From NCBI GenBank assembly GCA_963769025.1, contig CAVYKI010000002.1:64001-128000 (forward strand): 64,000 nucleotides of DNA, written 5' to 3'. The stretch is from an uncultured Verrucomicrobiae bacterium. Lineage in GTDB: Bacteria > Verrucomicrobiota > Verrucomicrobiia > Chthoniobacterales > Chthoniobacteraceae. A program made the translations under genes and the position numbers. Below are positions 962-30,830 of this stretch, piece by piece (the stretch's first letter is position 1; each line of letters starts with the position of its first letter). The notes beneath the pieces were generated by a model, which saw only the letters and a program-made list of their open reading frames with translations, ran no database searches and was not told the DNA's origin.

Positions 962-3581
962 TCAGTCAATGTAGATGAATTCGTTCAGTCCGAAGAGCGA
1001 CTGGCAGAAGTCGGTGAGTGCGAGACGTTGCGCGGCGGCGAACGGTTCCTTCGCATCGCGCTGCGCGCGGGCGGCGGTCTGCGCTGCGATGAATGCGCGG
1101 GCGTCGGCGAGTTCGTCGGGAGCGGGTCCGCGGCTGAGGCAGAGTTGGAACGCAGCGCGAATCTGCGCGTCCACATCACCGCCGGCGTCGGCTCGCAGTC
1201 GCTTCGCGAGTTCCTCTGCGCGCATCCGCACGAACGGGTCATTCAGCAGCGCCAGCGCCTGCGGGGCCACGGTCGTGTTCATTCGGCGGCCGCAACTCTG
1301 CTGCGCATCCGGCGCGTCGAACGCCTGCATGAGCGGATACTGCACGACGCGCTTGTGAAACATGTAGATGGTCCGCCGCCGCGTCTCCGGCGTGTCCTTC
1401 GCATCGCGCGGATAAGGGTCCTTCACATTGCGCGCCTGCAGCGCTTCGGCGGGAATCGGCGGCTTGAAGCTCGGCCCGAACACCGCCGGGTTCAGCGTGC
1501 CCGCGACCGCGAGCATCGAGTCGCGCAGGATTTCCGATTCGAGCCGCAGCGGACGCCGACGCCAGAGCAGGCGGTTCTCGGGGTCGATCGCGCATTTCTT
1601 TTCGTCGAACGCCGACGCCTGCTGATAGGCCGCGCTGTTCACGATGAGCCGGTGCAGATGCTTCACGCTCCAGCCGCTGCGGATGAACTCGCCCGTGAGC
1701 CATTCGAGCAACTCGGGATGCGTGGGCAGCTCACCGCGCGTGCCGAAGTCGCTCGACCGTGCGCACGAGGCCTTCGCCGAAATGATGCTGCCAGACGCGG
1801 TTCACCATCACGCGCGCGAGCAACGCGCCCGCGCCGTGGTCGAGGTCGGTCATCCAGTCCGCCAGCGCGCGACGCTGCTGCGTGCTGTCGTCGCGGAGCT
1901 TCGATGCGCGCGCGGTCTTCCAGTAGTCGTCCGGCAGTCTTGCCCGTTCATCAGCACGGTGAGAAAACCGAGGTCCATCTTCTCATTGCGCGCCATGAAA
2001 TTCGCCGCGCTCGAAGAACCACGACTCCCGCGGCTCCGGCGCGAAGTCGGCGAACGCGAACGCTGTCGGCAGCGCGGCGGGTTTGCGCTTCGCGATGGCT
2101 TTCACGCGGCCATCGAGTTCCTCCCAGCGCGCCTTTTGCTTCGGTGGAAAACGCGCGACGTAATCCGCATCCTCGACCTTCAGTTCCTTCTTGAAACGAT
2201 TCGCCAGTTTCTTCCCCTCGGAACCGTCCGGCTTCTCCGTCAGCAGCTTCTTCTCGTCGTCCGAGAGCCGCAGCTTCGCAATCTTGGCCGCGCGCACGTG
2301 AATCCACAAACGGCTCGCGCGCCTTCTTCAGCCACGCATCGCGCTCCTTCACCGCCGCGTCGGATTCCGGCTGCCACTTCGCCAGTCGCGGCGCGTTGCG
2401 CCTTGACCTCGGCCTGCGATGCGAGCGGCACCTCGGCGCGGTCGCCGCTGTTGAAGACGCGCATGAGCCGGTAGTAGTCGCGCGTCGGCAGCGGGTCGTA
2501 TTTGTGGTCGTGACACCGCGCGCACGCCAGCGTGAGCCCGAGCATCGCCTGGCCCGTGGTCGAGACCATGTCGTCGAGTTCGTTGGCGCGGTTGCGGAGC
2601 TTTTCCTCCTCCATCTGCTTGTCGGGCAGGATGGAATTGACGCCCGCCAGCGATGAAGCCCGGTCGCCGCGATGGCATCCGGCTTGTCCGGCGCAATCTC
2701 ATCGCCCGCGAGCTGCCAGCGCACGAACTGGTCGAACGGCATGTCGTCATTCAGCGCGCGGATGACGAAGTCGCGGAAGCGATACGCATTGGGCCGGTCG
2801 TTGTCGCTCTCCATCCCGTTGCTGTCCGCGTAGCGCGCCACATCGAGCCAGTGCCGCGCCCAGCGCTCGCCGTGTGCGGACTCGCGAGCAACTCATCCAC
2901 GAGCGCGCGGACGGCGTCGCGCGATTCGCCGATGCGCGAACTCCAGCGCGTCATCTCCTCCGGCGTCGGCGGCAGACCGATGAGGTCGAAGTAAATCCGC
3001 CGCACGAGCGTGCGCGCATCCGCCGGGGCCGATGGGGAAATCTTCTTCGCCTCCTGCGCGTGCCGGATGAACTGGTCCACCGGAGTGCGCGCCCATGCTG
3101 TGTCCTTCACCATCGGCGGTTCAACCGCAGCCAGCGGGAGAAACGACCAGTGCTTCCGGTCCGCATCCGTCACCTTCATCTCCGCGCGGACTGTTTTGGC
3201 TGTCTCTTTGCCCGACTCCGGCCACTCAGCACCGGCATCAATCCACTGCTGGAGCAGTGCGATTTGTTTCGCTGTGAGCGGCTCCCCGCCGCCTTTGCGG
3301 GGCGGCATCCGCTCGTCTTCGTCCTTCGATGTCACCACCTGAAACACCCCGCTCTCACTCGCGTGCCGCGGCACGATGCCGCGCTCCCCAGAATCACCGC
3401 CCTTGAACGCCGACGCCTTTCAGTCCAGCCGCAGCCCGCCCTTCTGCTTCTCCAGCCCATGACACTTCACGCAGTGCTCGGTGAACAACGGCTCGATGTC
3501 CCGGCGAAACTCCACCACCGATGCTGTCACGGGAAACACCAGCGCGACGGCTGTCGCCAGAAATGTAAGAGGACGATTCAT
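962..3581 (-). CDS. Planctomycete cytochrome c / DUF1549 / DUF1553 (PSD1-type) protein, interrupted by frameshifts and one in-frame TGA
   Basis: Pieces across frames: signal peptide + HCVKCHG...[70 protein letters not shown]-terminal [11 protein letters not shown]. Confidence 0.85.
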
Positions 3582-3633
3582 GATGTAGCAGCCCAGAGCG
3601 GAAGGTGCTGCGGGGGCACGCAACCTCGCATCG

Positions 3634-5027
3634 CTAAACGAGGATGTCCTTCACCACGTTGCCGAACACATCGGTGAGCCGGTAGTCGCGGCCGCCGTGG
3701 CGGTAGGTGAGCTTCTCGTGGTCGATGCCGAGCAGGTGCAGGATCGTGGCGTGGAAGTCGTGCACGTGAACTTTGTTCTCCGCGACGGTCGCGCCGATCT
3801 CGTCGGTGGCGCCGTAGGCGATGCCGCCCTTCACGCCGCCGCCGGCCAGCCAGGAGGAGAAGCACGCGCTGTGATGGCCGCGGCCCTTCGTGCCGTCCAC
3901 GCCGGGCGTGCGGCCGAATTCGGTGGTCCAGACGACGAGCGTGTCGTCGAGCATGCCGCGCTGCTTCAGATCGCGGAGCAGGCCGGCGATGGGCTGGTCG
4001 ATGTTCTTCGCGTGCTTGGCGTGCTCGGCCATGTCGCCGTGCTGATCCCAGTTCTTGCTGCTGCTGCCGTCCACCAGTTCGATGAACCGCACGCCGCGCT
4101 CGGCCAGTCGGCGGGCGACGAGGCATTGCCAGCCGAAGCCTTCGCTCTCGCCGCGCTTCAGGCCGTAGAGCGCCAGCGTGTGCGTCGGTTTCCTTTTCCA
4201 GCGTCGAAGACCTCGCGCGCCTCGGTCTGCATGTGGAAGGCGGTCTCGAAGGTGCGGATGCGCGCGGCGAGATCGCGTGTCGCCGGCGCGCGCGTGCGAG
4301 GTGGCGGTTGTTGAGCACGTCGGCGAGGCCGAGTTCGAGTTCCTGCAGGCCGCGCTGCTGCGTGCGGCGGTCGAGATTGGCGATCGGCTCCTTGCCGCCG
4401 ATCGACGCGCACGCCCTGATGATACGCGGGCAGGAAGTCGTTGTTGAAAATCTGCGTGCCGGCGTAGGGCATCTGCGGCGCGAGCGCGACGAACGACGGC
4501 AGGTTCTGATTCATCGTGCCGAGGCCGTAGCTGACCCACGAGCCGATGCTCGGCCGCGAGAAGAAGAACGAGCCGGTGTGCATGCCGAGCGTGGCGTTGT
4601 AGTGCTCGTTGTCGTCGCCCTTCATCGAGCGGATGAGGCAGATGTCGTCCATGCACTCGCGCAGATGCGGGAAGAGATCGCTGACCATCGTGCCGCACTT
4701 GCCACCGGGCCGGAACTCCCAGCCGGGCTTGAGCAGGACGCGCTGCTGATTCGAGAGGCCGCCGCCGACGCCGGTCATCTTGCCATCGGCGGCGAAGAGC
4801 TCGGGCTTCGGATCGAACGTGTCCATGTGCGACACGCCGCCGTTGGAGAAGATGAAGATGACGCGCTTCGCCTTCGCGGGAAAATGCGGCTGCTTCGGCG
4901 CGAGCGGGTCGGCGGTTGCGGCGGCGGATTCCGCGAGCAGGCTCGAGAGGATGCCCGGCATCAGCAGCGAGCCGCCGACAAGCGAGCGGAGGATTTCGCG
5001 GCGATGGAAAAGGCGGGGTGAGTTCAT
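3634..5027 (-). CDS. DUF1501 family protein, frameshifted
   Basis: N-terminal part (ORF 4158..5027): [29 protein letters not shown]-terminal part (ORF ending 3634): [46 protein letters not shown]. Confidence 0.85.
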
Positions 5028-5039
5028 GGGTGGCGCGGG

Positions 5040-7988
5040 TCAGTCGAGGTAAACAAATTCGTTCAGGCGGAAGAGCACGCGGACGTAGGCGCGCCACGCT
5101 TCGGCTGTCCGCCTTGTCGGCGGGCAGGTCGTCGCTCGCGAAGTTGCGCGCGCGCGCTGGCGAGAAATTTCTCCGCGGCGGCGCGTTCGTCGGCGGCAGG
5201 CGGGCGGGCGAAGAGCAGCTCGTAGGCGCGCTGGATGCGGGCGGCGTCGTCGCTGGCGTGCGAAGTGATGCGCTCGGCGACGCGCTTGGATTGCTCGTGG
5301 ACGAACGGATCGTTGAGCAGGTAGAGCGCCTGCAGCGGCGTGGTGCTCGTCGGTGCGCGCGGGCGTGCTGGCGGACGGATCGGCGCCGTCGAAGATGGCG
5401 AGATACGGATGCCGCTGGATGCGCTGCGTCATCAGATACACGCTGCGGCGGTTGCTGTCGATAGACGGCCTTGAAGGGATTGTGCTGCGTGAAGTCCCAC
5501 TCGTGCGCGGCGGAAACGGATGCGGGCCGGCGGGCGTGAGGTCGAGGTTGCCGCCGAGCGCGAGCAGCGTGTCGCGGATGGCTTCGGCATCGAGCCGCCG
5601 GCGCGGAAAGCTCGCGAGCAGCTCGTTCGCCGGGTCGCTGCGCGATCGCGTCGGCGTCGCGCGCGCGTGGCGATGCTGATACGTGCGCGAGAGCATGATG
5701 AGCCGGTGCATCGCCTTCACCGACCAGCCGCCGTCGCGGAACTTCGCGGCGAGGTAATCGAGCAGTTCGGGATGCGTCGGCGGCTTGCCCTGTTTGCCGA
5801 AATCATTCGGCGTCGCGACGATGCCGCGGCCGAAGTGATGCAGCCAGATGCGATTGACCATCACGCGCGCGGGGAGCGGATTGTCGTTGGCCGAGAATCC
5901 AGTCGGCGAGCTGCGCGCGGCCGCTGGACTTCGTCGCCGGGCGGCAGTTCCGCGCCGCCCAGCACGGTGAGGAAATGGCGGCGGCACCATCGTCGCCGGG
6001 CTTGGCCGGATCGCCCTTCTGCTGGACCGGCACATCGGAAATTTTCGCGGCGTCGGCGACGGCGTACGCCATCTCGAAGGGCAGCGATTTTTTCTGCACC
6101 TTCGCGAGCGCCTGCTCGGCTTCCTTCAGCTTCGCCTGCGGCCGCCTCCTTCTTCTCGCCCTTCCCCTCCTTCACGGCATTCTTGAGCTTCGCCACCTCG
6201 CTGTCGAGCCGCGCGCGTTCCTTCTCGCGCTCGCGTTGCGTGGCCTCGGCCTCGGCGAGTTTTTCCGTCGGCACCAGCGGCACGAAGTCGCGCTGCTTCT
6301 TGTCCAGCTCGATGCCCGGCCACGGGTAGCGCGTGCTGTGGAAGATGCCGTAGAGCGCGTAGTAATCCTGCTGCGGTGATGGGATCGAACTTGTGGTCGT
6401 GGCAGCGCGCGCAGCTGACCGTGAGGCCGAGGAAGGCTGCGGCCCGAGGTTGTCGATCGTGTCCTCGATCGTGAGGTGCTGCGGGTAATCGTCCACGCGC
6501 GAGCCGAAGCGGCGCGCGTTCGCGATGTAGCCGGTGGCGATGATGCGCTCGTAGCGTTCCTCCTCGGTCGCGCCGCCGCGCAGATCGCCCGCGAGCTGCT
6601 CGCGCACGAACTGGTCGTAAGGCAGGTCGCGGTTGAACGCGGCGATGACCCAGTCGCGGTAGCGATGCATCTGCGGAATGGGATAGTCGGAATTGTCGCC
6701 CGCCGTGTCGGCGTAGCGCACGACATCGAGCCAGTGCCGGCCCCAGCGTTCGCCGTAGCGCGGCGAGGCGAGCAGGCGATCGACGACGCGCGCGAAGGCG
6801 TCCGGCGACGCGTCGGCGACGAACGCCGCGACTTCCTCCGGCGTCGGCGGCAGGCCGATGAGGTCGTAGGTGGCGCGGCGGATGAGCGCGCGCTTGTCGG
6901 CATCGGCGGCGGGCTTGAGCTTCGCTGCCTCGAGCTTCGCGAGGATGAAACGGTCCACGTCGTTCGCGGGCCACTTCGTGTTCTGCACCGCGGGCGGCTT
7001 CGGTGCAGCCAGCGGGCGGAACGACCACCACTCGCGCGCCTTGTTCCAGTCGATCGCCGATCCTTCGCCTTCACCGCGGCGACGGTGTCGTCGCGCGCGG
7101 ATCGGGCGCGCCCATCCGCACCCACGCCTCGAGCTCGGCGATGACGCTCGGGCGGCGAGCTTCTTCTTCGGCGGCATCGCGAGGTCTTCGTTCAGCGTGG
7201 CGCACGCGCCTGGATGAGCAGGCTCGCATCGGGATCGCCGGGCGTGATGGCCGGGCCGGTGTCGCCGCCCTTTTGCACGCCCGCGCGCGAGTCGAGCACG
7301 AGGCCGCCCTTGATTTTCTTCGCGCCCGCGCTGTGGCACTCGTAGCAGGTCTCCACGAGCACCGGGCGGATCTTGCTCTCGAAAAACGCGATCTGATCGG
7401 CAGTCGGCGCGGCGGCGAATTGCGCGCGCGTTCGCGCTCGGGAACCGCGCCGTCGCCCGACCAGACCTCGATGCCCGAAAGATTCGCCGCGCCGTGGCTG
7501 GCGCCCTGCGCGCCGAGACCGTCAGCCTGCCGTCCTTCACGCTCGCGCGCGCCACGGGCCGAGCCGTTTCCACATGCCCGCCTCGCCGCTGTAAAATCCT
7601 GGCACCACGACCTGGTCATTCACGAGCAGATCGAACTGCTCGTTGTGGTTGTCCTCCCACACGTAGAGGAAGACCTGATACGCGCCCGGCGGCGACGGCC
7701 GGTGAATTCGAGGCTCACCTTGCCGCCCCAGACGCTGCTGCGAATCATCTGCGCGCGCGCTCGGCGTCCGTCGGCCGGCTTGAGCACGACCTTCTGGTTC
7801 TCAAACGTCTTGCCGTTCGCCTTGAAATCCTTCGCATCCGCGCCCGCCTCCCACGCGTGCCCGTCGATCGTCACCGCCGGACCGTTGAGATTGATGCCGC
7901 GCAGAAACTTCGCATCCGCCGCATCGACGGAGGCGAGGCCGCTCATCCAGAGGAGCGAGAGGAGAAGGGTAGGGGAGGATCGTGGCAT
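5040..7988 (-). CDS. PSD1-type DUF1549/DUF1553 cytochrome c protein with extra N-terminal beta-rich domain, heavily frameshifted
   Basis: Signal peptide at 7988; CYECH heme motif near 7340-7350; [66 protein letters not shown]-terminal [11 protein letters not shown]. Confidence 0.8.
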
Positions 7989-11887: not shown

Positions 11888-12346
11888 ATGAGCGAACCCA
11901 CTCCCCCGGCGTGTCAGTTGCGCGTCCATTCCGACCACACGGAAAAGGCCACGGCCTACGTGCGCAAGCAACGGCTGGAGATCGGCAGACCGCACACGTT
12001 CGATGAGAAATACGAGGCCATCACGGCGCTGGAGGCGTTCGCGGGTGCGCTGGCGGCCGACATCATCAACGGCCTGCACCTGCGGGCGCGGCAGCGCAGG
12101 ATCGCGATTGAGCGCATCGAGGGCGTGGTGAAAGTCTGGCTCAGGAACGCGCTGACGTTTCTCGCCGTGGTCGGCGAAGAGGGCGATCCTTCGATTGAGA
12201 CGGTGACGGTGCAGCTCTATGTCAGCTCGCCGGAAACCGAGGAACTCGTGCGGTCGTTATTGGATGAAACGCTCAGGCGTTCACCGCTCCACCTGACGCT
12301 CTGCAAGGCGGCGAAGGTGACCGTAAACTTTCAAGTGACCATCTGA
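11888..12346 (+). CDS. OsmC-like protein lacking the catalytic cysteines
   Basis: OsmC-like pattern (ALEAFAGALAADI...RRIAIERIEG.V...RRSPLHLTL). The usual Cys positions are D and S. Confidence 0.65.
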   Translation: MSEPTPPACQLRVHSDHTEKATAYVRKQRLEIGRPHTFDEKYEAITALEAFAGALAADIINGLHLRARQRRIAIERIEGVVKVWLRNALTFLAVVGEEGDPSIETVTVQLYVSSPETEELVRSLLDETLRRSPLHLTLCKAAKVTVNFQVTI

Positions 12347-12396
12347 CGCGACGGCGAATATTCCCCATCCCCTGAACTCCATGAAACCCCAGCACC

Positions 12397-13557
12397 ATGT
12401 ACCGACTCACTGTTGAACAATCCGCCCTCGTCGCGCGGTCGCGCGACATCGCGGAGAACCAAGTTGCCCCGCACGCGGCCCGTGTGGATGAAACCTCAAC
12501 CTTCCCCGGCGAATCCGTGCAGGCACTCGCGAAGGCCGGCTTTCTCGGCCTGACGATTCCGCAGGAACATGGAGGCTTGGGACAGGGACCGCGCGTGGTG
12601 TGCGCGGTCGTGGAGGAGATCGCGCGGCGGTGCAGTTCCACGGCGATGATTTACATAATGCATCTCGCAGGCGTCGCCTGCTACCTCGCGGCACCGAGGA
12701 AACCGGAGGCGGCGCTCCGCGATGCGGCGGCAGGACGGCATCTCAGCACGCTGGCTTTCAGCGAAAAGGGTTCCCGCAGTCATTTCTGGGCGCCGGTGAG
12801 CAAGGCGTCGCGCCCGGCGCAAAACGGGTCGGTGAATGTCTCCGCGGAGAAGTCATGGGTCACTTCCGCCGGTCACGCGGACGCGATGGCGGTCTCGACG
12901 CGATGGGATCGCGGCACGGAGCCGATGCAGTCGATGATCTATCTCGTGATGCGGGACGATCCCGGCGTCAGCGTCAGCGGCACTTGGAATGCGCTCGGCA
13001 TGCGGGGCAATCAAAGCGCGCCGGTGCGGCTTGAAGATGTGGCGCTGGATGAACCGAGTCGTGCGCTGTGCGAGCCGGGCAAGGGATTTGAAATGATGCT
13101 CGGCGTGGTGCTGCCGCTCTTTCACGTGTGCCAGGCAGCCATCGCACTCGGCATCTGCGAAGCGGCAATCTCCGCCACGCAGGCGCATCTCACCGGCGCG
13201 AAGCTGGAGCATCTCGATTCGCGCTTGTGCGACCTGCCGAATCTCCGCGCGCAACTGGCGCGGATGCGACTGATGACCGATCGCGCGCGGGCGCACCTGG
13301 TCTGCACGCTCGACGCGATGGAAAGCGGCCGCGCAGACGCGCAGGTGCTCGTGCTGGAGATCAAGGCGTCGGCCAGCGAGACCGCGGTGGATGTCACCGA
13401 TCTCGCGATGCGCTGCTGCGGAGGCGCGGCGTTCAGCAAGCATCTCGGAATCGAGCGTGTCTTCCGCGATGCGCGTGCGGCCGTCGTGATGGCCCCCACC
13501 ACCGATCATGCGCACGAATTTCTCGGGCGCGCGCTCTGCGGCATGGAGCTCTTCTAA
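12397..13557 (+). CDS. Acyl-CoA dehydrogenase family flavoprotein
   Basis: GFLGLTIPQEHGGLG, LAFSEKGSRS, KSWVTSA, LGMRGNQS, GGAAFSKHLGIERVFRDARA. Confidence 0.9.
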   Translation: MYRLTVEQSALVARSRDIAENQVAPHAARVDETSTFPGESVQALAKAGFLGLTIPQEHGGLGQGPRVVCAVVEEIARRCSSTAMIYIMHLAGVACYLAAPRKPEAALRDAAAGRHLSTLAFSEKGSRSHFWAPVSKASRPAQNGSVNVSAEKSWVTSAGHADAMAVSTRWDRGTEPMQSMIYLVMRDDPGVSVSGTWNALGMRGNQSAPVRLEDVALDEPSRALCEPGKGFEMMLGVVLPLFHVCQAAIALGICEAAISATQAHLTGAKLEHLDSRLCDLPNLRAQLARMRLMTDRARAHLVCTLDAMESGRADAQVLVLEIKASASETAVDVTDLAMRCCGGAAFSKHLGIERVFRDARAAVVMAPTTDHAHEFLGRALCGMELF

Positions 13558-13569
13558 CATCACACCTCG

Positions 13570-14391
13570 ATGAATATACCCAAGCCCATCATCGTCGGCG
13601 CGGTCCTCTACGATCCGAAGGTCTCGGTCATCTGGGACATCATCCGCGATTTCTTCGAGGCGAGCGGCTGCCCGATGGATGTCGTCTTCTACACGAACTA
13701 CGAATTGCAGGTGAAGGCGCTGCTCGACGGCCATCTCGACATCGCGTGGAATTCCCCGCTCGCGTGGCTCGATGCCCAGCGGCAATCCGGCAACCGCTGC
13801 CGTGCGATTGCCATGCGCGACACGGATCGGGATCGCGTGTCGCATTTTGTCGTGCGCACCGATGGCGACGTCCGCGAACTGGCTGACCTCCGCGGCAGGA
13901 CGATCGCCTGTGGTGCGAAGGACTCACCGCAGGCGACATTGATCCCTCTTGGCTTGTTGCAGCGCGAAGGCATGGAGCCGGGACGCGATTTCATCGTGCG
14001 CCGCTTCGATGTGCTCGTCGGCAAACACGGCGACCATATCGGCGGCGAGGGCGACGCTTTTCAATGTCTCGCCAGCGGCGAAGCGGCGGCGTGCGCGATG
14101 CTGGATCTGAATTGGGACGCTTGGACGAGGGACGGTCGCATCGACAGCCAGCGGTTCCGCATTCTCGCCACGACGGATCGTTTCGATCACTGCGTCTTCG
14201 CGGTGCGCGAAGACTTCGATGCCGGTGCCGAGCAGCGCTGGCTGAAAGTGCTGTTCTCAATGGACTACGAGAATCCGAAGCATCGCGAGATGATGGACAT
14301 GGAAGGTCTCAAGGAGTGGCTGCCGGGGCGCACGAGCGGATTCGGTCCGCTCGGCGAAGCGGTGGAGCGGCAGCACTTTTTCTCCGCGTGA
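13570..14391 (+). CDS. PhnD/SsuA-type binding-fold protein without signal peptide
   Basis: YELQVKALLDGHLDIAWNSPLAW, LADLRGRTIACGAKDSPQATLIP; no hydrophobic leader. Confidence 0.75.
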   Translation: MNIPKPIIVGAVLYDPKVSVIWDIIRDFFEASGCPMDVVFYTNYELQVKALLDGHLDIAWNSPLAWLDAQRQSGNRCRAIAMRDTDRDRVSHFVVRTDGDVRELADLRGRTIACGAKDSPQATLIPLGLLQREGMEPGRDFIVRRFDVLVGKHGDHIGGEGDAFQCLASGEAAACAMLDLNWDAWTRDGRIDSQRFRILATTDRFDHCVFAVREDFDAGAEQRWLKVLFSMDYENPKHREMMDMEGLKEWLPGRTSGFGPLGEAVERQHFFSA

Positions 14392-15536
14392 ACGCGCTCC
14401 CGCTGTTTCCCGTCACCACGGTCGGGAGCTGGCCGCGCCCAGCGGAATTGCTGCGCGCGCAAAAGCTTTGTCGCGAGGGCCGCATGGCGAATGAGGAATT
14501 TCAGCGGCTCGCGGACGACGCGGTGCGCCACGCCGTGCAGCGGCAGGAGGAAGCGGGCGCGGACATCGTCACCGATGGCGAGCAGCGCCGGGATAATTTC
14601 GTCTCCTTCGTCGCGACGCGGTTAGACGGCACGCGGCTCATGACGCTCCTCGAAATGCTCGACATCATCGAGGACAAGGCGGGCTTTGAACGGCTGCTGC
14701 AGACGCTCGACGTGCCCGCATATTCCATCAGCAACGCCACATGCACCGGACGCGTCTCGCGCCGGCAATCGCTCGCCGCGGACGACGCGCGATTTTTACA
14801 AAGCGTGACGCGGAAGCCGATCAAAGTCGCGCTGCCCGGTCCCTACATCCTCACGCGCTCGATGTGGGTGAGGGAGGCCAGCGGCGCTGCCTATGCGAGC
14901 AAGGAGGAGCTCGGCGCGGATGTCGTGCGGGTGCTGCGCGAGGAGATTGCGGAACTTTTGCAAATGGGCGTGGACTTCATCCAGTTCGACGAGCCGGTGC
15001 TCACCGAACTGGTCTTCACGCAGGGACAGACGCGCACCTTCATGTGTGCCGCGCTCTCGTCGCGCAAGGATCCGGCGGCGGAACTCGACTTCGCCGTGCA
15101 ACTGCTGCGCCGTGTGGTCGAAGGTTTCAGCGGCACGCGGTTCGGGCTGCATGTGTGCCGCGGCAACTGGAGCCGCGACGAGTCCACGCTCTTGCGCGGC
15201 AGCTACGATGCGCTTGCGGCGACGCTGAACAAGATGCCCGTCCAGCAGCTGGTGCTCGAATATTCCACCGACCGCGCGGGCGATCTGATGCGGTTCGATG
15301 CGCCGGAACTCGGTCTCGGTGTGGCCAACCCGCGCTCGGATGAGATCGAGTGCTCCGACGAGATCGCGCGTCGCGTCGAGCGTGCGCTGAAGTTCTATCC
15401 GGCCGAGGCGATTTTTCTCAATCCGGACTGCGGCTTCTGCACGTTCGCAAACCGTCCCGTGGCGCACGATGACGTGGCAACGGCCAAGCTCAGCGCGATC
15501 GCGGAGGCCGCGCGAAAGCTGAGGGGAGAGCGTTGA
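14388..15536 (+). CDS. Cobalamin-independent methionine synthase II (MetE C-terminal-like) family protein
   Basis: GTG at 14388 overlaps the upstream stop (GTGA). Motifs TTVGSWPRP, DIVTDGEQRR, IQFDEP; Zn ligands HVCRGN, LEY, NPDCGF. Confidence 0.88.
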   Translation: MNALPLFPVTTVGSWPRPAELLRAQKLCREGRMANEEFQRLADDAVRHAVQRQEEAGADIVTDGEQRRDNFVSFVATRLDGTRLMTLLEMLDIIEDKAGFERLLQTLDVPAYSISNATCTGRVSRRQSLAADDARFLQSVTRKPIKVALPGPYILTRSMWVREASGAAYASKEELGADVVRVLREEIAELLQMGVDFIQFDEPVLTELVFTQGQTRTFMCAALSSRKDPAAELDFAVQLLRRVVEGFSGTRFGLHVCRGNWSRDESTLLRGSYDALAATLNKMPVQQLVLEYSTDRAGDLMRFDAPELGLGVANPRSDEIECSDEIARRVERALKFYPAEAIFLNPDCGFCTFANRPVAHDDVATAKLSAIAEAARKLRGER

Positions 15537-15638: not shown

Positions 15639-17235
15639 ATGAAATCACGCTTCTCCCGCTTCGCATTGCTTTCCCTTTCCGCACTACTCCTGCTCGGCCC
15701 TGTTGCGGGGCTTCGTTCGGCTTCTCCCGTGGAATCACCCGAGGCTCTGCGTCAGGAAATCGCCGCGATCCAGCCGCCAAAGCTCGTGTGGCGCGAGATC
15801 GACTGGAACTACTGCCTGCTCGACGGCATCGCGAAGGCGCGTGCGCAGAAGAAACCCATCCTGCTCTGGGCCTTCATCAATTCCGACCCTGCGGAAGAAC
15901 GCTGTTGAGTCTTCGCCGGTGCCGCCCGTGAGGCGGTCTTCTCCAACTCCGAAGTGATCCGCCGTGTACAAGACGGCTTCATCCCCGTCTCCGTCGCCGC
16001 TGGGCACATGACGCGCCCGGCTCCGGAACTCGAGAGGCAGCTCCTGAACGCGATCGGGAAATCCGGGCCCGCGCCGCAGGGCATCGCCGTGCTCAATTCC
16101 GACGGCCAAGTGCTCGACTGGGTGCTGACCTTCCGCGACGACCCCGCGGTGCTCGAAGTTTCTCGATCACGCGAACAAGCAATTCAGCGAGCATCCGGAT
16201 CGCAGCAAGCCGTTCCAGACCGAGCGGTATCAGCAGTTCCCCGAGCGGACGCGTGAGCCGATGGCGGCGCATGATCTCGTCGTCCCTGCCGGGGCAAAAC
16301 ACGGCCCGGACGATCGCTGCCCCGCCGATTCCGTCTATTCGGCGGGGACTGTGATTGCGAAGGTCGTAGGACGTCGCATCAACCCTGACGGAACGGTGAT
16401 GACGGGAGCCGTCAACCAGGAGGACTACGCGCAGGATCGTTTCATCATCGACCCCGCCCAGCAGGAGGAACTTGCCGACGCGCTCGCGAAGGCGAATGGC
16501 AAGCGCGCCATCGTGCCGAATGCAATCGCCACCGCGTGGACCACCTACGCCTACATGGGAATGCTCGATGTGCGTCCCGTGAAAAATCCCGCCGGGCTCA
16601 AGACGGAGCGCAGCGAGATCGAATTTTGGGCGGAGCCCGATGCGAAAAATCCCGGCTGGATTCGCATCGGCGGCCGCACCGATGTGCTCGTCGGCGACCC
16701 GGACAAGGGAGCGAGCCGCGCGAAGATGGGTAACAGCGTCAAGCTCGAGTGGACCGGCTTTGCGAAGCTCGAAAACCGTCGCATCACCAACCTGCTCCTC
16801 ACTGCGGATGGCGAGGAATCGCTGCGCTGGGGCACGACTGCGCCGATGGGGCAGTCCCAGCCGCAAGTCGGCAACCGCCCGCCAGAGGTCGCCGCCCTGC
16901 TCGGCGGACGCCCCATCCTGTGGAGCGGTCGCGTGCGTTACGGCATCATTGGCGAGCCTGCGAAGGCGGAGCAAATTTCCGCCACGGCCGTATCGTCGGC
17001 CAGCGGCGCGGGGGCCGGCGGGCAGGCTGCCATCCGAGACAAGATGCCGCGGCTCATGCAGCTCATGCAACGCGGCGGCGGGGCAGCGAGGGAGACCATC
17101 GGACCGATGATGCAGGAGTTTCAGAAACTGATGCGCGAACAGAAATTCGACGAAGCCTCGAAGCACCTGGACAAACTCCTCTCGCAACTCGATGCCGCCG
17201 CGGAAGCGCCTGCGAAGGAACCGGGGCCCCGTTGA
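15639..17235 (+). CDS. Predicted secreted selenoprotein, thioredoxin fold with vicinal Cys-Sec (SelN-like); Sec UGA at 15906..15908; one probable indel near 16157
   Basis: Signal peptide, then W...IAKARAQKKPILLW...EERC-TGA-VFAGAAREAVFSNSEVIRRVQDGFIPVSV, in frame with ORF 15954. A +1 shift near 16157 joins ORF 16261..17235 (FLDHANKQF...REPMAAHD). Hairpin follows the UGA. Confidence 0.78.
15921..15937 (+). promoter_or_regulatory. Candidate bacterial SECIS
   Basis: GCCGCC-CGUGA-GGCGGU, 6-bp stem with GU in the loop, starting 12 nt after the UGA. Confidence 0.6.
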
Positions 17236-17321: not shown

Positions 17322-18524
17322 TCATTTCGATCCGTCGCCCGGCGGGCGGGTGAGTGATTCATCGAGCGGCGCGCCCGTGAGTGTCCGGAGGAATGCCTCC
17401 AGGTCCGCCTTTTCCTCCTCGGTGAAATGCCCCGTCTGGAGCGTTTCCTCGCGATGCCCGAAGACCGGCAGGCCCGGCAGGTCCGAGTAAAAATCGAGCA
17501 CATCGCGCAGCGTGGCGAAGCGGCCGTCGTGCATGTAGGGCGCGGTCTGTGCGACATTGCGCAGCGTGGGGGTCTTGAATTCGCCGAGATGGTTCGGCTT
17601 CACGACGAGGTAGCGGAGCTTGATGTTGGTCTCCGGGCTCCGGTCGTCGCTGAGCGTTCCGAGGCCGTTGAAGCGGTCATCGCGGACTTCGAGGATTCCT
17701 TCGAACCGTCCCTGATCGAATGCGGCAGGGAGACCGATGTTGTGGAATTCGCCGTCGGAAAAATTCGGCCCGGAATGGCACAGTACGCATCGACCGCGGC
17801 CGGTGAAGAGCGTGAGGCCACGTAGCGCCGCTTCGCTGATCCGCGCGGATGAGTCCGGCGCTTTCCCTTGCCGCAGTGCAGCGACGAACCGATCGAACAC
17901 CGAGCCCGTACTGATGATGCGGCGCTGATAGGCCTCGATCGCCTTGCCGAAGTTGGAGAGCAAACGATCCGCTGCGGGAGTGCGGGCTTTTGCATCCGCG
18001 GGCAGCGGGCCGAAGATCGCCTCGTATCCGGATTTCAACGCGCCGTCGCCGGAGAGGACTGCGAGAAGGTGTTCCGGCGAGGAGCCCATTTCCGCAGGGT
18101 GGAGCAGCGGATGCACGGCCTGCGCCCAGAGGGAATCCGCGCGCCCGTTCCAGAAAAACCAGCGCTGATGCGCGACGTTCCAGAGCGGCATCGCGTGGCG
18201 TTCGGTCACTCCAAGTCCGACGGAGAGCGGCTTCGGATCGGCGAAGCCGTGCGCGGGATTGTGGCAGGTGGCGCAGGAGATTTTGCCGTTCGCCGAGACG
18301 CGCGGGTCGAAGAAGAGGCGTTGGCCCAGCAGCGCCGCGGCGGGGTTGTCGGCGACGGCGTTGGTCGGGCTCGGAGGAGTGGCGGGCAGCGGTGAGAGCT
18401 TGAGGATCTCGCGCATCGCACCGGCGCTGAACTGCACGGGGACAACCTCCGGCTTCCGGTCGCATCCCGCACCGGAAGACACCGCCAGCCCGATGGCGAC
18501 GATTGCCAGGCTGCGCCCGGTCAT
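17322..18524 (-). CDS. Di-heme cytochrome c peroxidase / MauG family lipoprotein
   Basis: Two heme motifs (CATCH, CVLCH); LGQRLFFDPR, FKTPTLRNVAQTAPYMHDG. ATG at 18524 overlaps the upstream TGA; lipobox-like GAGC. Confidence 0.9.
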   Translation of the reverse strand: MTGRSLAIVAIGLAVSSGAGCDRKPEVVPVQFSAGAMREILKLSPLPATPPSPTNAVADNPAAALLGQRLFFDPRVSANGKISCATCHNPAHGFADPKPLSVGLGVTERHAMPLWNVAHQRWFFWNGRADSLWAQAVHPLLHPAEMGSSPEHLLAVLSGDGALKSGYEAIFGPLPADAKARTPAADRLLSNFGKAIEAYQRRIISTGSVFDRFVAALRQGKAPDSSARISEAALRGLTLFTGRGRCVLCHSGPNFSDGEFHNIGLPAAFDQGRFEGILEVRDDRFNGLGTLSDDRSPETNIKLRYLVVKPNHLGEFKTPTLRNVAQTAPYMHDGRFATLRDVLDFYSDLPGLPVFGHREETLQTGHFTEEEKADLEAFLRTLTGAPLDESLTRPPGDGSK

Positions 18525-18982
18525 TCGATCGAGACCGGAAAGAACGCCCGCTCCTTTGTGGTTCCCGCTGAAACCTCGACCATAATCGACCACTCGCCTG
18601 CCATGTGGAAGAGCATGCCGTTTGCGCGGTAGCGGTTTCCTCCCTCGTGGATGGTTTCCGGTTTGGTGTTCATCCCGTGGCCGTGGCTCGGCATGTCGGC
18701 GTCCACCGCGACGCTGTTCGGAGCGCCTGCACCGGCGCCCGCTTCGAGGACGACGCCGATCGAAAAATGTTTGTTCGTCGTGATGCCGCCGCCCTCGGGC
18801 TGGATCGTCACGGTGAAATTCCCGCCGTCAGTCTTGCGCTTGGCAGGCCAGATCGCGGGAGCGTTGGGAGCGCCCGGCGGTGGGAGTTGTGCCGTTTCGG
18901 AGGTTTTCTTGCAGCCTGCGCCAGTCGCTGCAATCAGGATGCTGAGGAAAGCCGGAAGGCAGGCGCGAAAGGTGGTTCTCAC
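18521..18982 (-). CDS. YtkA/FixH-like lipoprotein
   Basis: Lipobox GAGC; DADMPSHGHGMNTKP and GMLFHMAGEW motifs. Confidence 0.75.
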   Translation of the reverse strand: MRTTFRACLPAFLSILIAATGAGCKKTSETAQLPPPGAPNAPAIWPAKRKTDGGNFTVTIQPEGGGITTNKHFSIGVVLEAGAGAGAPNSVAVDADMPSHGHGMNTKPETIHEGGNRYRANGMLFHMAGEWSIMVEVSAGTTKERAFFPVSIE

Positions 18983-19045: not shown

Positions 19046-20573
19046 TCAGGATTTCTTGCCGGGGACTTTGCGCTGCGTGCGCTTCGCCCATTCCTCGTAG
19101 GCGGTCTTCAAGGTGCTGACCATTTCCGGATGCGCGGCTGCCACGTCCTTCATCTCGGTGCGATCACTTCCGAGATCGAAAAGATGCCATTCCTTCGCGC
19201 GGTTCAGCTTGTCCCACACCAGCTTCCAGTTTCCGCGACGGATGGCTGCGTTGCCGGACCATTCCCAGCATAGATCGCCCTCGCGTTCCGCAGCAGCGGT
19301 CCCGCGCAGCAGCGGCATCAGCGTGCGTCCTTCGAGCGGACGCGCGGTCTTTCCTTCGACCTTCAATTCGCCCTTCGCCCCGGCGAGTTCCAGGCACGTC
19401 GGCATTACATCGAGAATGTGCGCGACCACATCGCAGCGGCTGCCGGGGGCGATCTTGCCGGGCCAGCGCGCGATCATCGGCGTGCGAGATGCCGCCCTCG
19501 TTCACCCAGCTCTTGTAGCGGCGGAACGGCGTGTTCTGCGCCCAGCCCCACGACGGTCCGACGGCGGTGTAGGTGCTCGCAATTCCCGGCTGCTGCGACG
19601 GATCGCGCCCGCCGGGTTCCTCGGTGCAGCCGCCGTTGTCGGAGAAAAAGAGAATCAGCGTGTTGTCCGCCACGCCCGCTTCATCGAGCGCCTTCAGCAG
19701 CCGGCCGATGTTCTGGTCCATGCGATCCACCATCGCCGCATACGTCGCCATGCGCAGGTCCTCCCATTCCTGGTTCGCACCGCCCCACGCGTACGCCTGC
19801 GAATCCGTCTCCGAGAGCGCGGGCTGCGCGCTGAACAGATGCAAGTCCTGCTGCCGCTGGTAACGCTGCTTCCGCATTTCCTCCCAGCCCATGCGATACT
19901 TGCCGCGATACTTCGCGATGTCCTCCGGCGGCGCGTGCAGCGGATAGTGCGGGGCGGTGTAGGCGAGATGGAGAAAGAACGGCGTCTTCGCCTGCGCGGA
20001 ATCCTTCACCGCACTGATGGCGCGATCCGTGAACGCGTCGGTCGTGTAGAACCCCTCGGGGAATTCCGTGATCAGCCGGTCGTCCTCGCCGAAGACGCGC
20101 ACCTTGTTTCCCTTCGCTTCCGGGTCCGGTTGCGCGGGGTTGAAGAAATTGCAGCAGCCATCCATCAGCCCGTAGTAGAAATCGAAACCGCGATCGTGCG
20201 GGCGCTGCGGCGCCTTCGATCCGAGATGCCACTTGCCGCACAGCGCCGTCCGGTAGCCCTGCGCCCTCATCGCCTCGCCGATGGTCGGCATGTCCAGCGG
20301 GATGGACGATCCATTCCCGCGCGGATACATGCCGGAGAGCAGCGCCGCGCGCGTCGTCGTGCATTTGGCGTTGTTGTAGAATTGCGTGAACCGCATCCCT
20401 TCCTTCGCCATTCGGTCGAGATTCGGCGTGTGGATTTCGCCGCCGTAGCAGCCGATGTCGGAGAAGCCCATGTCATCCGCCATGATGACGATGACATTCG
20501 GCCTCGCCGCATCCGCGAGCGCAGGCAGCGCGCTGAGACCCAGCGCGAGGACGGTCAGGAAGTTGGTGATCAT
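19046..20573 (-). CDS. Arylsulfatase (frameshift near 19490)
   Basis: Signal peptide, RPNVIVIMADDMGFSDIGCYG, CTTTRAALLSG, GKWHLG, FFSDNG. The C-terminus (ARWPGKI, AIRRGNWKLV) is in ORF 19046..19477. Confidence 0.9.
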
Positions 20574-20663
20574 GGGGGTGATGTTAGTACCTCCCTGCAA
20601 AAGGACGAATACGTTTTCGGCGATGTTTCCGCATGGCCGTGTTGAAACTATCGCGAGCAGGGG

Positions 20664-25536: not shown

Positions 25537-25633
25537 GGAGAGTGAAGGGTGCCTGGTGGCCCTCGCGGTCTTCAAAACCGTTGTCGGTCCGTTCTGCGGG
25601 CCGAGGTGGGTTCGATTCCTACCCTCTCCGCCA
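25537..25633 (+). tRNA. selC: tRNA-Sec (anticodon UCA)
   Basis: 97 nt. Anticodon loop CU-UCA-AA (UCA at 25572..25574), UGGU D loop, 8-bp variable arm, GUUCGAUUC T loop, G discriminator and encoded CCA. Directly upstream of selA. Confidence 0.95.
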
Positions 25634-25645
25634 CTCGCCACGCGC

Positions 25646-27001
25646 ATGAGCGGAAACACAAAGCTCCGCGCCATCCCGTCGATCGAGAAGCTCGTGCAGG
25701 CGCTCGGCCCGCTCGATGTACCGCGGCCTCTGGCAGTCGCTGCCGCGCGGAGGGAAGTCGCGGCACTGCGCAAGGAAAAGGAGGTGCCGGATTTTGCAGA
25801 CGTGGTGCAGCGGCTGGCGGCGGCTGTGGAAAGTCTGCGCCGGTCGCGGATCCAGCCGGTGATCAATGGCACGGGCATCCTCCTTCACACGAATTTCGGC
25901 CGCGCGCCGCTCGGCCCGGCGGTGGTCGCGGCAATCTCGGCGGTCGCGGCTGACTACAACAATCTCGAATACGACACCGCCACGGGCGCGCGCGGCGATC
26001 GCGCGGCGTACCTGGAGCAATGCCTCGCGGCGCTCTGCGGCGCGGAGGCGGCGACAGTGGTAAACAACTGCGCGGCGGCGCTGGTGCTGGCGCTGCGGCA
26101 TTTCACGAAGAAGAAGCCCGAGGTGATCATCTCGCGCGGTGAATTGATCCAGATCGGCGGCGGCTTCCGCATCCCGGAAATCCTCGAGGCGAGCGGTGCG
26201 CGCTTGCGCGAGATTGGCACGACGAACAAAACGACGCTGGCGGACTACCAAAAGGCGATCGGCCCGGAGACCGGGATGATTTTGAAAGTCCACCGGAGCA
26301 ATTTTTTCATGGGCGGATTCGTAGAGGCGCCCGATTCCGACGGGATTGCCGCGCTGGCGAAGAAGCGGCGTGTTCCTTTCGTCGAGGATCTCGGCAGCGG
26401 CGCGATTGCCGCGACGGAGAAGCTGGCACCAATCGCGCACGAGGCGACCCCCTTGGAAGTGCTCAGGCACGGCGCGGATCTGGTGATGTTCAGCGGCGAC
26501 AAGCTGCTCGGCGGGCCGCAGGCGGGCATCCTTGCCGGTCGCGCGCGACATATCGCGGCGCTGAAACGCGAGCCATTCTATCGCGCGCTGCGCTGCGACA
26601 AGCTCATCCTCACGGCGCTGCAAACGACCGCGGAACTGTATCTCACCGGCGCTCACGACGCGATGCCGATGCTCGCGATGCTGCGCGTTTCCAATGACGA
26701 CCTTCGCGCGCGTGGCGAAAGACTCGTCGCGGCACTCGCAGGCCTGCCGCTCTCGGCGCGCGTCGGCGAAGGCATGGCGCAGGTCGGTGGCGGCACCCTG
26801 CCGCAGGCGGAGATTCCGTCCGTCACGCTCGATCTCGCACCTGCGAAGATGCCGCTCGATGAATTTGCCGCGCGCCTCCGCGCAGGCGCGCCGCCGGTCA
26901 TAGGCTACATCTCGGGACGGCGGCTGAAGCTCGACCTGCGCACGATTTTCCCGCGGCACGATCCGACGCTCGTCGAGGCCATCCGCAAGGCATCCGCGTG
27001 A
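25646..27001 (+). CDS. selA: L-seryl-tRNA(Sec) selenium transferase
   Basis: VINGTGILLHTNFGRAPL, VVNNCAAA, SRGELIQIGGGFRIP, ILKVHRSNF, FSGDKLLGGPQAG (PLP lysine). ATG at 25646 lies just after the tRNA. Confidence 0.96.
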   Translation: MSGNTKLRAIPSIEKLVQALGPLDVPRPLAVAAARREVAALRKEKEVPDFADVVQRLAAAVESLRRSRIQPVINGTGILLHTNFGRAPLGPAVVAAISAVAADYNNLEYDTATGARGDRAAYLEQCLAALCGAEAATVVNNCAAALVLALRHFTKKKPEVIISRGELIQIGGGFRIPEILEASGARLREIGTTNKTTLADYQKAIGPETGMILKVHRSNFFMGGFVEAPDSDGIAALAKKRRVPFVEDLGSGAIAATEKLAPIAHEATPLEVLRHGADLVMFSGDKLLGGPQAGILAGRARHIAALKREPFYRALRCDKLILTALQTTAELYLTGAHDAMPMLAMLRVSNDDLRARGERLVAALAGLPLSARVGEGMAQVGGGTLPQAEIPSVTLDLAPAKMPLDEFAARLRAGAPPVIGYISGRRLKLDLRTIFPRHDPTLVEAIRKASA

Positions 27002-28923
27002 TGGAGGTGCGGCACTTCATCGTCGCCACCGCGGGTCACGTCGATCACGGCAAGAGCGCGCTGGTCACGGCGCTCACCGGGGTGGATCCGGACCGGTTGC
27101 CGGAGGAAAAGGCGCGCGGCATCACGATCGAACTCGGCTTCGGACATCTTCGGCTTGGCGACTTCGAGATCGGGATTATTGACGTGCCGGGGCACGAGGA
27201 TTTCGTGAAGAACATGGTCGCGGGCATGGGCGCGGTGGATGCCGCTCTTTTTGTCGTGGCGGCTGACGATGGGTGGATGCCGCAGACGGAGGAACATCTG
27301 CACATCCTCGGCTACCAGGGCGTGCGGCACGCGGTCGTCGCGCTGACGAAGATCGATCTTTGCGCGGATGAGAAGACGGCCATCGCCGCCATCCGGGAAA
27401 GGCTGCGCGGCACGCCCTTCTCCACCGCGCCGATCGTGCCGACCTCCATCGTCACGGGGCGGGGGATTGACGAGTTAAAGGGCGCACTCGCGAACGTGCT
27501 TTCACACACGCCTCCGTCGCGCGACATCGGCAAGCCGCGCCTTTCCGTGGACCGGGCGTTCACGTTGCGCGGGATCGGCACCGTGGTGACGGGCACGCTG
27601 AGCGGCGGCGAACTGAAACGCGGACAGGCCGTCGTCATCCAGCCTGTGGGCCTGAAGGCGCGCATCCGCGGAATCCAGAGCCACAGCCGCGAAGTCGAGA
27701 CCGCCGGGCCGGGGACGCGCACTGCGCTCAACCTTTCCGACATCGCGCTCGCCGCGCATGGCCAGCAGGGCGTCGAGCGGGGCAATGTGATTACGCTCGA
27801 AGCGCTCGGTGCGCCGGTCGCGCGGATGGATGCGGTCCTCTCGCGTTCTGCTCGCTGCGAGACCGGCAAGGGCAAGCCTGCGCTGAAAAATGGCGCTCGC
27901 GTCCGCGTCCATCACGGGAGCGGCAATGTGGCGGCACGCGTCGCGTTGTTCCGCGTGCCGGCCGTGGCGCCGGGCGGGAATGTGCTTGCGCGGCTGAAGC
28001 TCGAGCAGCCGTGGTTTGTGTGCGAGGGCGATCGTTTCATCCTGCGCGACTGGTCGGAGACCGTGACGCTCGCGGGGGGGATCGTTCTGGAGACTGCTGC
28101 GCCGGTCCGCTTCCACGCGCCGCCGCACCAGCGATTGCTGGCGCAGCGCGCGGCGGCGCCGGCGGATGTGGAGGTGTTTGTCGCCACGCAGGTCGAGCGG
28201 GATGGAATGGTGCGTGCCGCTTCGCTCCTTGCGGACTCGATCTTCAGCGCGCGTGAAATCGCCGCCGCCGCGGCACGCCTCGTGGAAGGCGGGCGGGCGA
28301 TCCAAGCCGGGGAATTCATCGCGTACGGGGATTGGTGGAAGGCCGTGGTCAAGCGCGCCGCGGACGCGATCGACGCCTGCCATGCTGAGCATCCTGAGCA
28401 CGCGGGGCTGCCGGTGAACGAACTCCGCACATTGCTCAAACGCGAACTTCCGGAGTCCGGCACGTTCGATGCCTTCGTGCGCGATCTCTGCCGCGCCGGC
28501 TTTTCGCAGAGCGGCCCCACGATTGCCCGCGCGTCGCACCGCGCGTCGCTCCCGCCGCATCTCGAGTCGGCAGGCGCGCGCATCCGTGCCGCGCTCGCCG
28601 TCAAGCCATTCGACCCGCCGCCGCGCCGCGAACTGGCCACGGATTCGCTGTCGCAGCAGGCGTTCCGTTTTCTGCTGGAGAAAGGCGAGGTCATCGAGTT
28701 GCCCGGCGAGGTCATTCTCACGAGCGCGGGTTTTGCGCGGATCAAGGAAGTGATCGCACAGTTCATCCGGAAGAACGGCCCCGCGACGGTGAGCCAGTTG
28801 CGCCAGGAACTCGGGACCACGCGCCGCGTGATGATGCCCGTGCTCGAGCGTCTCGACCGTGAGGGTTTCACCGTGCGAGCAGGCGACCTGCGATCGCTGA
28901 AGGCTGCGAAACCGACGGCATAG
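26998..28923 (+). CDS. selB: Selenocysteine-specific elongation factor
   Basis: TAGHVDHGKS, DRLPEEKARGITIELGF, DVPGHEDF, VDRAFTLRGIGTVVTGT; C-terminal winged helix LGTTRR...LERLD.EG.T.R.GDLR. Start GTG 26998 or ATG 27001, overlapping the selA stop. Confidence 0.96.
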   Translation: MMEVRHFIVATAGHVDHGKSALVTALTGVDPDRLPEEKARGITIELGFGHLRLGDFEIGIIDVPGHEDFVKNMVAGMGAVDAALFVVAADDGWMPQTEEHLHILGYQGVRHAVVALTKIDLCADEKTAIAAIRERLRGTPFSTAPIVPTSIVTGRGIDELKGALANVLSHTPPSRDIGKPRLSVDRAFTLRGIGTVVTGTLSGGELKRGQAVVIQPVGLKARIRGIQSHSREVETAGPGTRTALNLSDIALAAHGQQGVERGNVITLEALGAPVARMDAVLSRSARCETGKGKPALKNGARVRVHHGSGNVAARVALFRVPAVAPGGNVLARLKLEQPWFVCEGDRFILRDWSETVTLAGGIVLETAAPVRFHAPPHQRLLAQRAAAPADVEVFVATQVERDGMVRAASLLADSIFSAREIAAAAARLVEGGRAIQAGEFIAYGDWWKAVVKRAADAIDACHAEHPEHAGLPVNELRTLLKRELPESGTFDAFVRDLCRAGFSQSGPTIARASHRASLPPHLESAGARIRAALAVKPFDPPPRRELATDSLSQQAFRFLLEKGEVIELPGEVILTSAGFARIKEVIAQFIRKNGPATVSQLRQELGTTRRVMMPVLERLDREGFTVRAGDLRSLKAAKPTA

Positions 28924-28975
28924 TCGCGCCGTTCGCCGCCTTGACGGCAGCCGGCTTCTGGCGTTGCCTTGACTC

Positions 28976-29632
28976 ATGAAAGCGTTCCTCCCTCTCGCTC
29001 TCGCCGCGGTTTTTGTCGCCGCTGCTTTTCCCGCTTCTGCGCAGCAACGGCCGAGGAAGGGCGACCTTCGCATGCCGGACACCGTGCGCGTGGGCGACGC
29101 GGCACCGGACTTCAAACTGAAAACACTCGATGGTTCGCGTGAAGTGCAGCTCTCCAGCTTCCGCGGCAAGCGGCCGGTGGTCCTTGTCTTCGGGAGTTAC
29201 ACCTGACCCCCTTTCCGGAGTCAGGTTGGCTCCATCGAGCAGCTCTACGCGGACTACAAGGACAAGGCCGAGTTCTTCATGGTCTATATCAAGGAGGCTC
29301 ATCCCACCGACGGCAGAGTGTCGCCAGGCAATGCGCGCGGCGGGATCTCCATTCCCGATCCGAAGACGTATGCCGAGCGGGCCGATGTCGCGCACAAGGC
29401 ATGCACGGAACTGAAAATCACCCTCCCGTGTCTCGTGGACGGGATGAACGATGCCGCGAACAAGGCCTACGCCGCGTGGCCGGATCGGATCTACGTCGTG
29501 GATGCCACCGGGAAGATCGCGGTGAGAGGCGGGCCGGGGCCGTCCGGTTTTGCGCCTTCGATCACCGAGACGCGGGTGTGGCTCGGCAAGATGTTTGGGC
29601 CGAAAGGCGCGGCGTCTCCCGGTTCCCGCTGA
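28976..29632 (+). CDS. Secreted iodothyronine deiodinase-like (thioredoxin/peroxiredoxin fold) selenoprotein, 218 aa; Sec UGA at 29204..29206
   Basis: ORFs 28976..29206 and 29279..29632 are in one frame: VGDAAPDFKL...RPVVLVFGSYT-U-PPFRSQ...VYIKEAHPTDG...VDGMNDAANKAYAAWPDRIYVV...GGPGPSGF, matching deiodinase motifs. Confidence 0.93.
29217..29233 (+). promoter_or_regulatory. Candidate bacterial SECIS
   Basis: GGAGUCA-GGU-UGGCUCC, 7-bp stem starting 10 nt after the UGA. The apical CAGGU resembles the E. coli fdhF SECIS tip. Confidence 0.8.
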
Positions 29633-29649
29633 CGCACTTTCCGCGGCGG

Positions 29650-30714: not shown

Positions 30715-30716
30715 AT

Positions 30717-30731
30717 GGATCACCTCCTTTC
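30717..30731 (-). promoter_or_regulatory. Extended Shine-Dalgarno of selD
   Basis: Minus strand GAAAGGAGGTGATCC just before the TTG start; complementary to the canonical 16S rRNA 3' tail GGAUCACCUCCUUUC. Confidence 0.8.
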
Positions 30732-30830
30732 GATTTCCAAAAGACCGCTGGTCCGCCGAAAGCCAAGGAGAAACCTCGGCCCGGAGAATTCCCGTTTGAC
30801 GGCCCCGTGGGACGAATCGACCGTGGAGCC

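Follow-up and report, generated by a model that had tools for sequence, protein, structure and literature searches.

Three apparent gene fragments at 15639–17235 of the window (the whole stretch of 64,000 nucleotides that was analyzed, from an uncultured Verrucomicrobiae bacterium) are one gene on the plus strand, and this gene belongs to a family that is widespread in bacteria and uncatalogued. Comparison of related sequences indicates that an in-frame UGA within it is very likely translated as selenocysteine (Sec). The product is probably an exported three-part protein. It would reduce or isomerize disulfides in the periplasm by selenol chemistry, with adjacent Cys and Sec residues of a predicted thioredoxin (Trx) fold as its active pair.

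The open reading frames of the window place the start ATG at 15639 and the final stop TGA at 17233–17235. The N-terminus is basic and hydrophobic and is followed by WREIDW...IAKARAQKKPILLW...EERC, the TGA, and then the open frame VFAGAAREAVFS; the TGT-TGA at 15903–15908 corresponds to Cys89 and Sec90, with the TGA itself at 15906–15908. Near 16157 the frame shifts by one base, after which 358 codons run up to the final stop. With the UGA read as Sec and the extra base passed, the gene has 531 codons (531 aa when the extra base is read through as X). A sequence-only reading of this DNA had described the signal peptide, the EERC-U motif, a hairpin and the frame break, and had proposed one gene of about 530 codons. 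We confirmed this design at 15639–17235, and the single gene was borne out by intact orthologous genes (L002 and L003) and by full-length homologs that join both sides. The likely signal peptide spans about 28 aa (15639–15722), judged by its basic N-terminus and hydrophobic core; by the same kind of heuristic, 96 of 109 loci among the matches listed have a hydrophobic 10-mer ahead of the domain.

To examine the UGA, metagenomes were scanned for the pattern VFAGAAREAVF with the preceding codon left free, which gave at least 120 loci (about 160 estimated). Together with the window gene, L002 and L003 these make a set of 123 among the matches listed, with duplicates reducing it to 108 distinct 63-nt segments. 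TGA stood directly before the pattern in 122 of the 123, with coding conserved on both sides, and a Cys codon preceded it in 121/121 readable cases; because the loci are related, these counts, which apply to the matches listed, overstate the number of independent events. The sole match with another codon, L014, lay in unrelated DNA that had no family context. A contig of 249 nt from another study, 99.6% identical with one difference, also spans the UGA and the hairpin. The claim that Sec is encoded here was thus upheld by the scan, by a covarying hairpin (see below) and by full-length homologs that have no stop at the site.

A profile search of the full library returned 320 proteins, and nearly all of the best 150 end before the UGA or begin past it. 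The two that span the site are P0091, a natural full-length homolog with Cys-Cys and the one such Cys-pair homolog, and P0094, which has His-Gly. That so few proteins cross the site would fit two coupled genes, with the TGA as a true stop between a short exported peptide whose last residue is Cys and a separate protein that starts from the next residue, Val, as would a GTG in the next position at 89 of the 122 loci listed, where gene callers place their starts. We regard this two-gene arrangement as close to refuted. The codon after the TGA is GTC, GTA or GTT, none of them a start codon, in 33 of the 122 loci listed (GTC in the window gene), and the site is never TAA or TAG, although 21 of the 41 complete members among the matches listed use those for their true stops (20 TGA, 15 TAG, 6 TAA). 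Two genes would also cut one Trx domain between a strand and the active-site helix, as placed by the structure model, and both the unsplit natural homologs and the covarying hairpin speak against them. Translation through the UGA would leave one gene hidden from automated annotation, as the sequence-only reading had expected: every one of the 54 homologs begins no earlier than the first residue past the UGA.

The hairpin that had been noted 12 nt after the UGA was found at 15921–15937 (plus strand), with a stem of 15921–15926 paired to 15932–15937 and the loop CGUGA. The bacterial SECIS consensus, as given in the accessible part of PMC13188914, has a loop of 3–9 nt with G within its first two positions, a stem of 4–16 bp, a spacing of 16–37 nt and a minimum free energy of −7.5 or lower. 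Our hairpin fits it, with a 5-nt loop, 6 bp, 18 nt between UGA and loop, and −10.2 kcal/mol. Among the matches listed, 600 of 600 pair cells were paired over 100 distinct rows (10 through a double change), and the covariation score was above all slid controls, with 0/500 shuffles as high; only third codon positions are informative in this comparison, as the search pattern fixes the first and second positions, and the relatives are not independent. At a synonymous hairpin position GCC was used in 107 of 108 cases, against a background of 41% from the codon use of the same genes, and the Arg codon in the hairpin was CGU or CGG alone, never CGC, the commonest. Folding energy by itself does not single the region out (z = −0.21 against shuffles for the 45 nt from the UGA).

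The machinery for Sec insertion is encoded in the same window, with selA, selB, selD and tRNA-Sec 8–15 kb from the gene. The tRNA-Sec (anticodon UCA) lies at 25537–25633 and the selA and selB reading frames at 25556–28923, all on the plus strand; selA scored above the TIGR00474 cut-off and selB was named from its sequence. On the minus strand, selD has its own in-frame TGA at 30663–30661. The whole Sec cluster (25537–32000) also holds a deiodinase-like gene with a TGA (28976–29632; PF00837, E = 2e-34) and a second member of the family, gene B. selA was present in 4/4 genomes carrying the family (3/3 besides the source genome) vs. 22 of 400 genomes sampled from the phylum, and tRNA-Sec scored above its cut-off in 3/4 carriers. 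selA was not found in any of the 29 congeners searched, so the cluster may have been acquired or selectively kept.

Upstream of the gene lies an operon (11888–15536) with OsmC-like, acyl-CoA dehydrogenase, phosphonate-binding-like and MetE-like genes, and downstream, on the minus strand (17322–18982), a di-haem cytochrome c peroxidase of the MauG type and a YtkA-like gene. These neighbors were not seen to recur at other loci, and no conserved gene neighborhood pointing to a substrate was found among the 49 loci long enough to test. An ECF sigma gene with a likely anti-sigma gene precedes six of these 49 (L012, L019, L031, L051, L055 and L083), where the members carry an N-terminal Spy/Metal_resist-like extension, and a TetR gene precedes four (L045, L050, L052 and L063).

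The second break in the gene, one extra base that the sequence-only reading had set near 16157, was located at 16156–16157. A contig with 92% identity bridges the site and has no such base at 16156, a second contig from the same study as this relative continues likewise, and 54/54 homologs read through the position, none being split there. Judged from these sequences, the base is very probably an assembly error. Frameshifts were present in 4/4 essential genes tested in this assembly (rpoB, in 9 pieces, rpoC, dnaE and valS). Paralog comparison over the assembly counted 295 apparent frameshifts in 1.44 Mb of coding DNA that could be tested, or 139 in 0.80 Mb where two queries gave support, a rate of about one per 5–6 kb. 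If the base were real, the copy would be a recent pseudogene, or subject to programmed frameshifting, and would yield a truncated Trx fragment, with the Sec assignment unaffected. The bridging contig does belong to a relative and not to this strain, which leaves some room for this explanation. We consider it improbable given the frameshift rate, the 358 downstream codons with no stop or second lesion, the lack of a slippery run at the site and the unbroken homologs. Frameshift findings elsewhere in this genome are likewise to be read in the light of assembly indels: a sulfatase gene (19046–20600) is split near 19480, and the stretch at 2600–7200 is similarly concerned.

Protein structure was modeled for the intact homolog L002 with Cys replacing Sec (pLDDT 91). 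The model predicts a Trx7/DsbH-type domain, a beta-sheet domain and a short movable helical module, and its first domain matched thioredoxin-fold structures, in agreement with the Trx fold proposed earlier. In the window gene this predicted domain, of Trx7/DsbH/AGR/UAS type, covers residues ~47–186 (15777–16197) and spans the indel. As in Trx topology, the redox residue opens the helix that follows the core strand, and alignment with CxxC proteins, checked together with the model, put Sec90 in register with the first, attacking Cys of CxxC. The motif itself is neither CxxC nor UxxC: it reads C-U-V-F-A, with Ala at +3 in all aligned members. An invariant Pro146 precedes the strand at which the cis-Pro of Trx folds is found. 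Cys59 (15813–15815) and Cys227 (16318–16320, in a conserved CP of the linker) were both present in 55 of 58 sequences, jointly lost in two, with one of them lost in a single garbled locus; from this co-occurrence they likely form a structural disulfide.

From 16345 to 16959 a domain is predicted that consists of a long antiparallel beta sheet with two helices packed on it; this domain is shared with a CxU sister family and had no clear match in the PDB. The Met/Gln-rich helical domain that had been described for the C-terminal region is present as a three-helix module (17023–17193), but makes up just the last ~60 aa, most of the region being the beta-sheet domain. In relatives the module may stand at either terminus, occur in repeats or be missing, or Spy/CpxP-like helices may take its place, and the N-terminal helical extension of some members matches Pfam Metal_resist (E = 2e-8). 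Both domains persist in P0094, which has no C-U pair, so some role of the fold does not depend on redox chemistry.

These features suggest the following mechanism. SelB and Sec-tRNA would bind the hairpin after the UGA so that Sec90 is inserted, and the signal peptide would export the chain. Sec90, at the start of the active-site helix, would then attack a disulfide or an oxidized thiol. The usual resolving position is Ala; the mixed intermediate would be resolved by the invariant Cys89, which would form a vicinal selenenylsulfide with Sec90, as the C-U pair of selenoprotein N (SelN) may also do. In mammalian thioredoxin reductase, a C-U pair forms such a vicinal selenenylsulfide. We hold this chemistry to be reasonably probable. 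Covariation suggests that the Cys59-Cys227 disulfide would serve to stabilize structure, the beta domain may recognize the substrate or partner, and unfolded envelope proteins may be held by the helical module, which in many relatives is Spy/CpxP-like; the step assigned to the beta and helical parts is the weakest.

Two other functions have to be weighed. As with the CU motifs of HgcA, SaoL and MbdU, soft metals or metalloids might be what the Cys-Sec pair binds or processes in the periplasm, an idea that gains from the Metal_resist match and from the mostly metal-related nature of catalogued bacterial CU families (PMC13188914, in its accessible part). We consider it unlikely, as Sec occupies the catalytic position in a Trx fold that retains the conserved Pro, the sister families have the typical redox motifs CxU and CxxU at the same place, metal-resistance genes do not recur beside the gene, and Metal_resist itself groups with Spy/LTXXQ helical proteins. 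Marginally less doubtful is a protein that senses redox state or acts as a redox switch, or one that reduces peroxide or small molecules, in which C-U oxidation would alter binding by the beta domain with no protein repair. P0094, with its whole architecture but no C-U, the regulators before some loci and the deiodinase-like selenoprotein in the same Sec cluster would all suit such a protein. Against it, a signaling output domain is absent, the regulators occur at fewer than half of the loci and may do no more than control the gene, and the closest folds are oxidoreductases of the DsbD-gamma/DsbH/ERp18 type. A disulfide reductase or isomerase thus remains our preferred function.

Gene B (30831–32000, plus strand) is a distant paralog with Cys88-Sec89 and its own SECIS-like hairpin. 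The kinship that had been seen between the two genes was verified in their Trx-like N-terminal domains (29% identity over 139 aa, E = 8e-7). Homology was not detected between their C-terminal domains, the gene B profile being shallow. Arg at +7 and Phe at +11 after the Sec had been reported together with the shared design; the 15639 gene has both residues, and gene B keeps the Arg but has Leu at +11. An expanded family in this genome was not supported: searches with family and broad profiles in six frames, with TGA open, found just these two members in an assembly that is 83% complete and rich in indels. The earlier interpretation therefore stands for the single gene, its Sec, the indel, the Trx fold, the concealment from annotation and the kinship with gene B, but not for the expansion. 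Expansion was seen elsewhere, in a genome (G437) with five matches, four of them with one TGA. The variable C-terminal domains that had been proposed hold for the helical module, which moves or grows, but the beta domain is nearly constant within the family.

Named database members belong to Planctomycetota and Verrucomicrobiota. With the queries used, the family was not found in 40 relatives or in 400 genomes of the phylum, so it is patchy in Verrucomicrobiota. A large sister family with DGHPLGCTU (CxU) and CxxU motifs has both domains in common (L134–L137 in G435 and G437; P0253–P0337); its CxU branch includes a Cys form, P0236, and the gene call of P0230 has Trp where the TGA stands. Other architectures were also observed. 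On the minus strand near 2998 of its contig, L073 is a natural fusion of two C-U thioredoxin-like domains, each with its own SECIS-like hairpin, and directly downstream lies a small gene with an in-frame TGA (CxxU-like, with an AhpD/CMD look). In L030 the beta domain is swapped for repeats resembling a TolB-type propeller, and P0034 is fused to a CotH domain.

The core domains reached no cut-off in Pfam or NCBIfam release 20, the nearest models being VPGUxxT, DUF255 and Thioredoxin_7. VPGUxxT proteins (NF041382/NF041383, OS_HP5) have the same type of domain (Trx7/DUF255) and place Sec where CxxC has its first Cys; weak profile matches came from 16 of 24 family members (best E = 0.00096), and the Cys forms (VPGCxxC) align in register. 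However, these matches are far under the curated cut-off, the window member had no hit, and our family lacks the VPG motif, places a Cys directly in front of Sec, has Ala at +3, and includes a beta domain and a helical module as additional parts. Thioredoxin_7 (PF13899) and Thioredox_DsbH/DUF255 (PF03190) scored 13–14 bits against a cut-off of 27, and differ in having WCxxC in place of C-U-x-x-A and a shorter active-site loop. The structures compared were 3f9u, 2lst, 2ju5 (DsbH), 3ira, 3ph9 (AGR3) and 2dlx (UAS). For the Trx7/PDZ selenoprotein (NF041199; CxxU, PDZ) there was no model hit and no PDZ domain was found. The catalogued CU selenoproteins HgcA, SaoL, SaoC, MbdU, KCU-star and Csac_0668 share the vicinal Cys-Sec and the annotation truncated at the UGA, but have other folds, and their NCBIfam models gave no match. 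Judged on sequence, the gene would work like a vicinal C-U thioredoxin-fold reductase, and it falls outside the definition of every catalogued family tried.

The 2026 catalogue of 119 families has, in its accessible part, no Trx-fold CU family and no SelN-like entry (PMC13188914). Nor was any account of the family, or of relatives of SelN in bacteria, found in the accessible parts of the literature searched, from which subscription papers were mostly absent (deep-Sep, PMC12013277; BSepDB, PMC13326102; PMC12839072; PMC7474598; PMC3316567; PMC3473315; PMC10298544; PMC7539508). One 'hypothetical' candidate, given with no sequence in Table S9 of a planctomycete genome paper (PMC4807772, seen in part), may be the same family.

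The family may be distantly related to selenoprotein N, the human muscle-disease protein. In the ESM Atlas, the second-ranked cluster for both natural homologs, P0091 and P0094, was one named 'Selenoprotein N', with scores of 0.84 and 0.90 (181 and 192 of 256 features); P0094 has no C-U. As no alignment is given and shuffled proteins reach 0.9 in 4–10 of 100 cases, the match is a lead and does not establish membership. No SelN-named row appeared among the 120 hits listed or among the structure matches of the model. SelN, according to the accessible parts of PMC12839072 and PMC7474598, has a vicinal Cys-Sec (SCUG) within a Trx-like domain, in an oxidizing extracytoplasmic compartment. Our protein shares the vicinal Cys-Sec within a Trx-like domain, but its motif is RCUV, its Trx domain is N-terminal whereas the Sec of SelN is near residue 460, and its N-terminus looks, by heuristic, like a cleavable signal peptide, unlike the membrane anchor of SelN. 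No EF-hand family was found at E ≤ 1 in the Pfam search, and a membrane anchor was not detected. A thesis reportedly deals with a SelN-like protein of Poribacteria, which could reduce the novelty of this link. It is an even question whether these proteins make up a large bacterial superfamily (CU, CxU and CxxU on one Trx-plus-beta-domain architecture) that is sister to animal SelN; in the same reading, it would consist of soluble periplasmic reductases, mostly from Planctomycetota and Verrucomicrobiota, with the vicinal Cys-Sec kept almost exclusively as Sec.

The work adds a selenoprotein family of wide distribution whose genes are split into two by gene callers. Its Cys form is rare (one Cys-Cys protein in the best 150 hits, and TGA in all 122 true matches listed), so searches based on Cys homologs would tend to miss it. 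A vicinal Cys-Sec at the attacking position of an exported Trx fold is not in the bacterial catalogue of PMC13188914, as far as its accessible part goes, and the structure of SelN was unsolved as of PMC7474598, also seen in part. If the sister relationship to SelN is true, the catalysis of SelN could be studied in a tractable model, and a eukaryotic selenoprotein family would have its root in bacteria. If the link holds, the human myopathy protein would gain soluble bacterial relatives, including an easily expressed natural Cys-Cys version.
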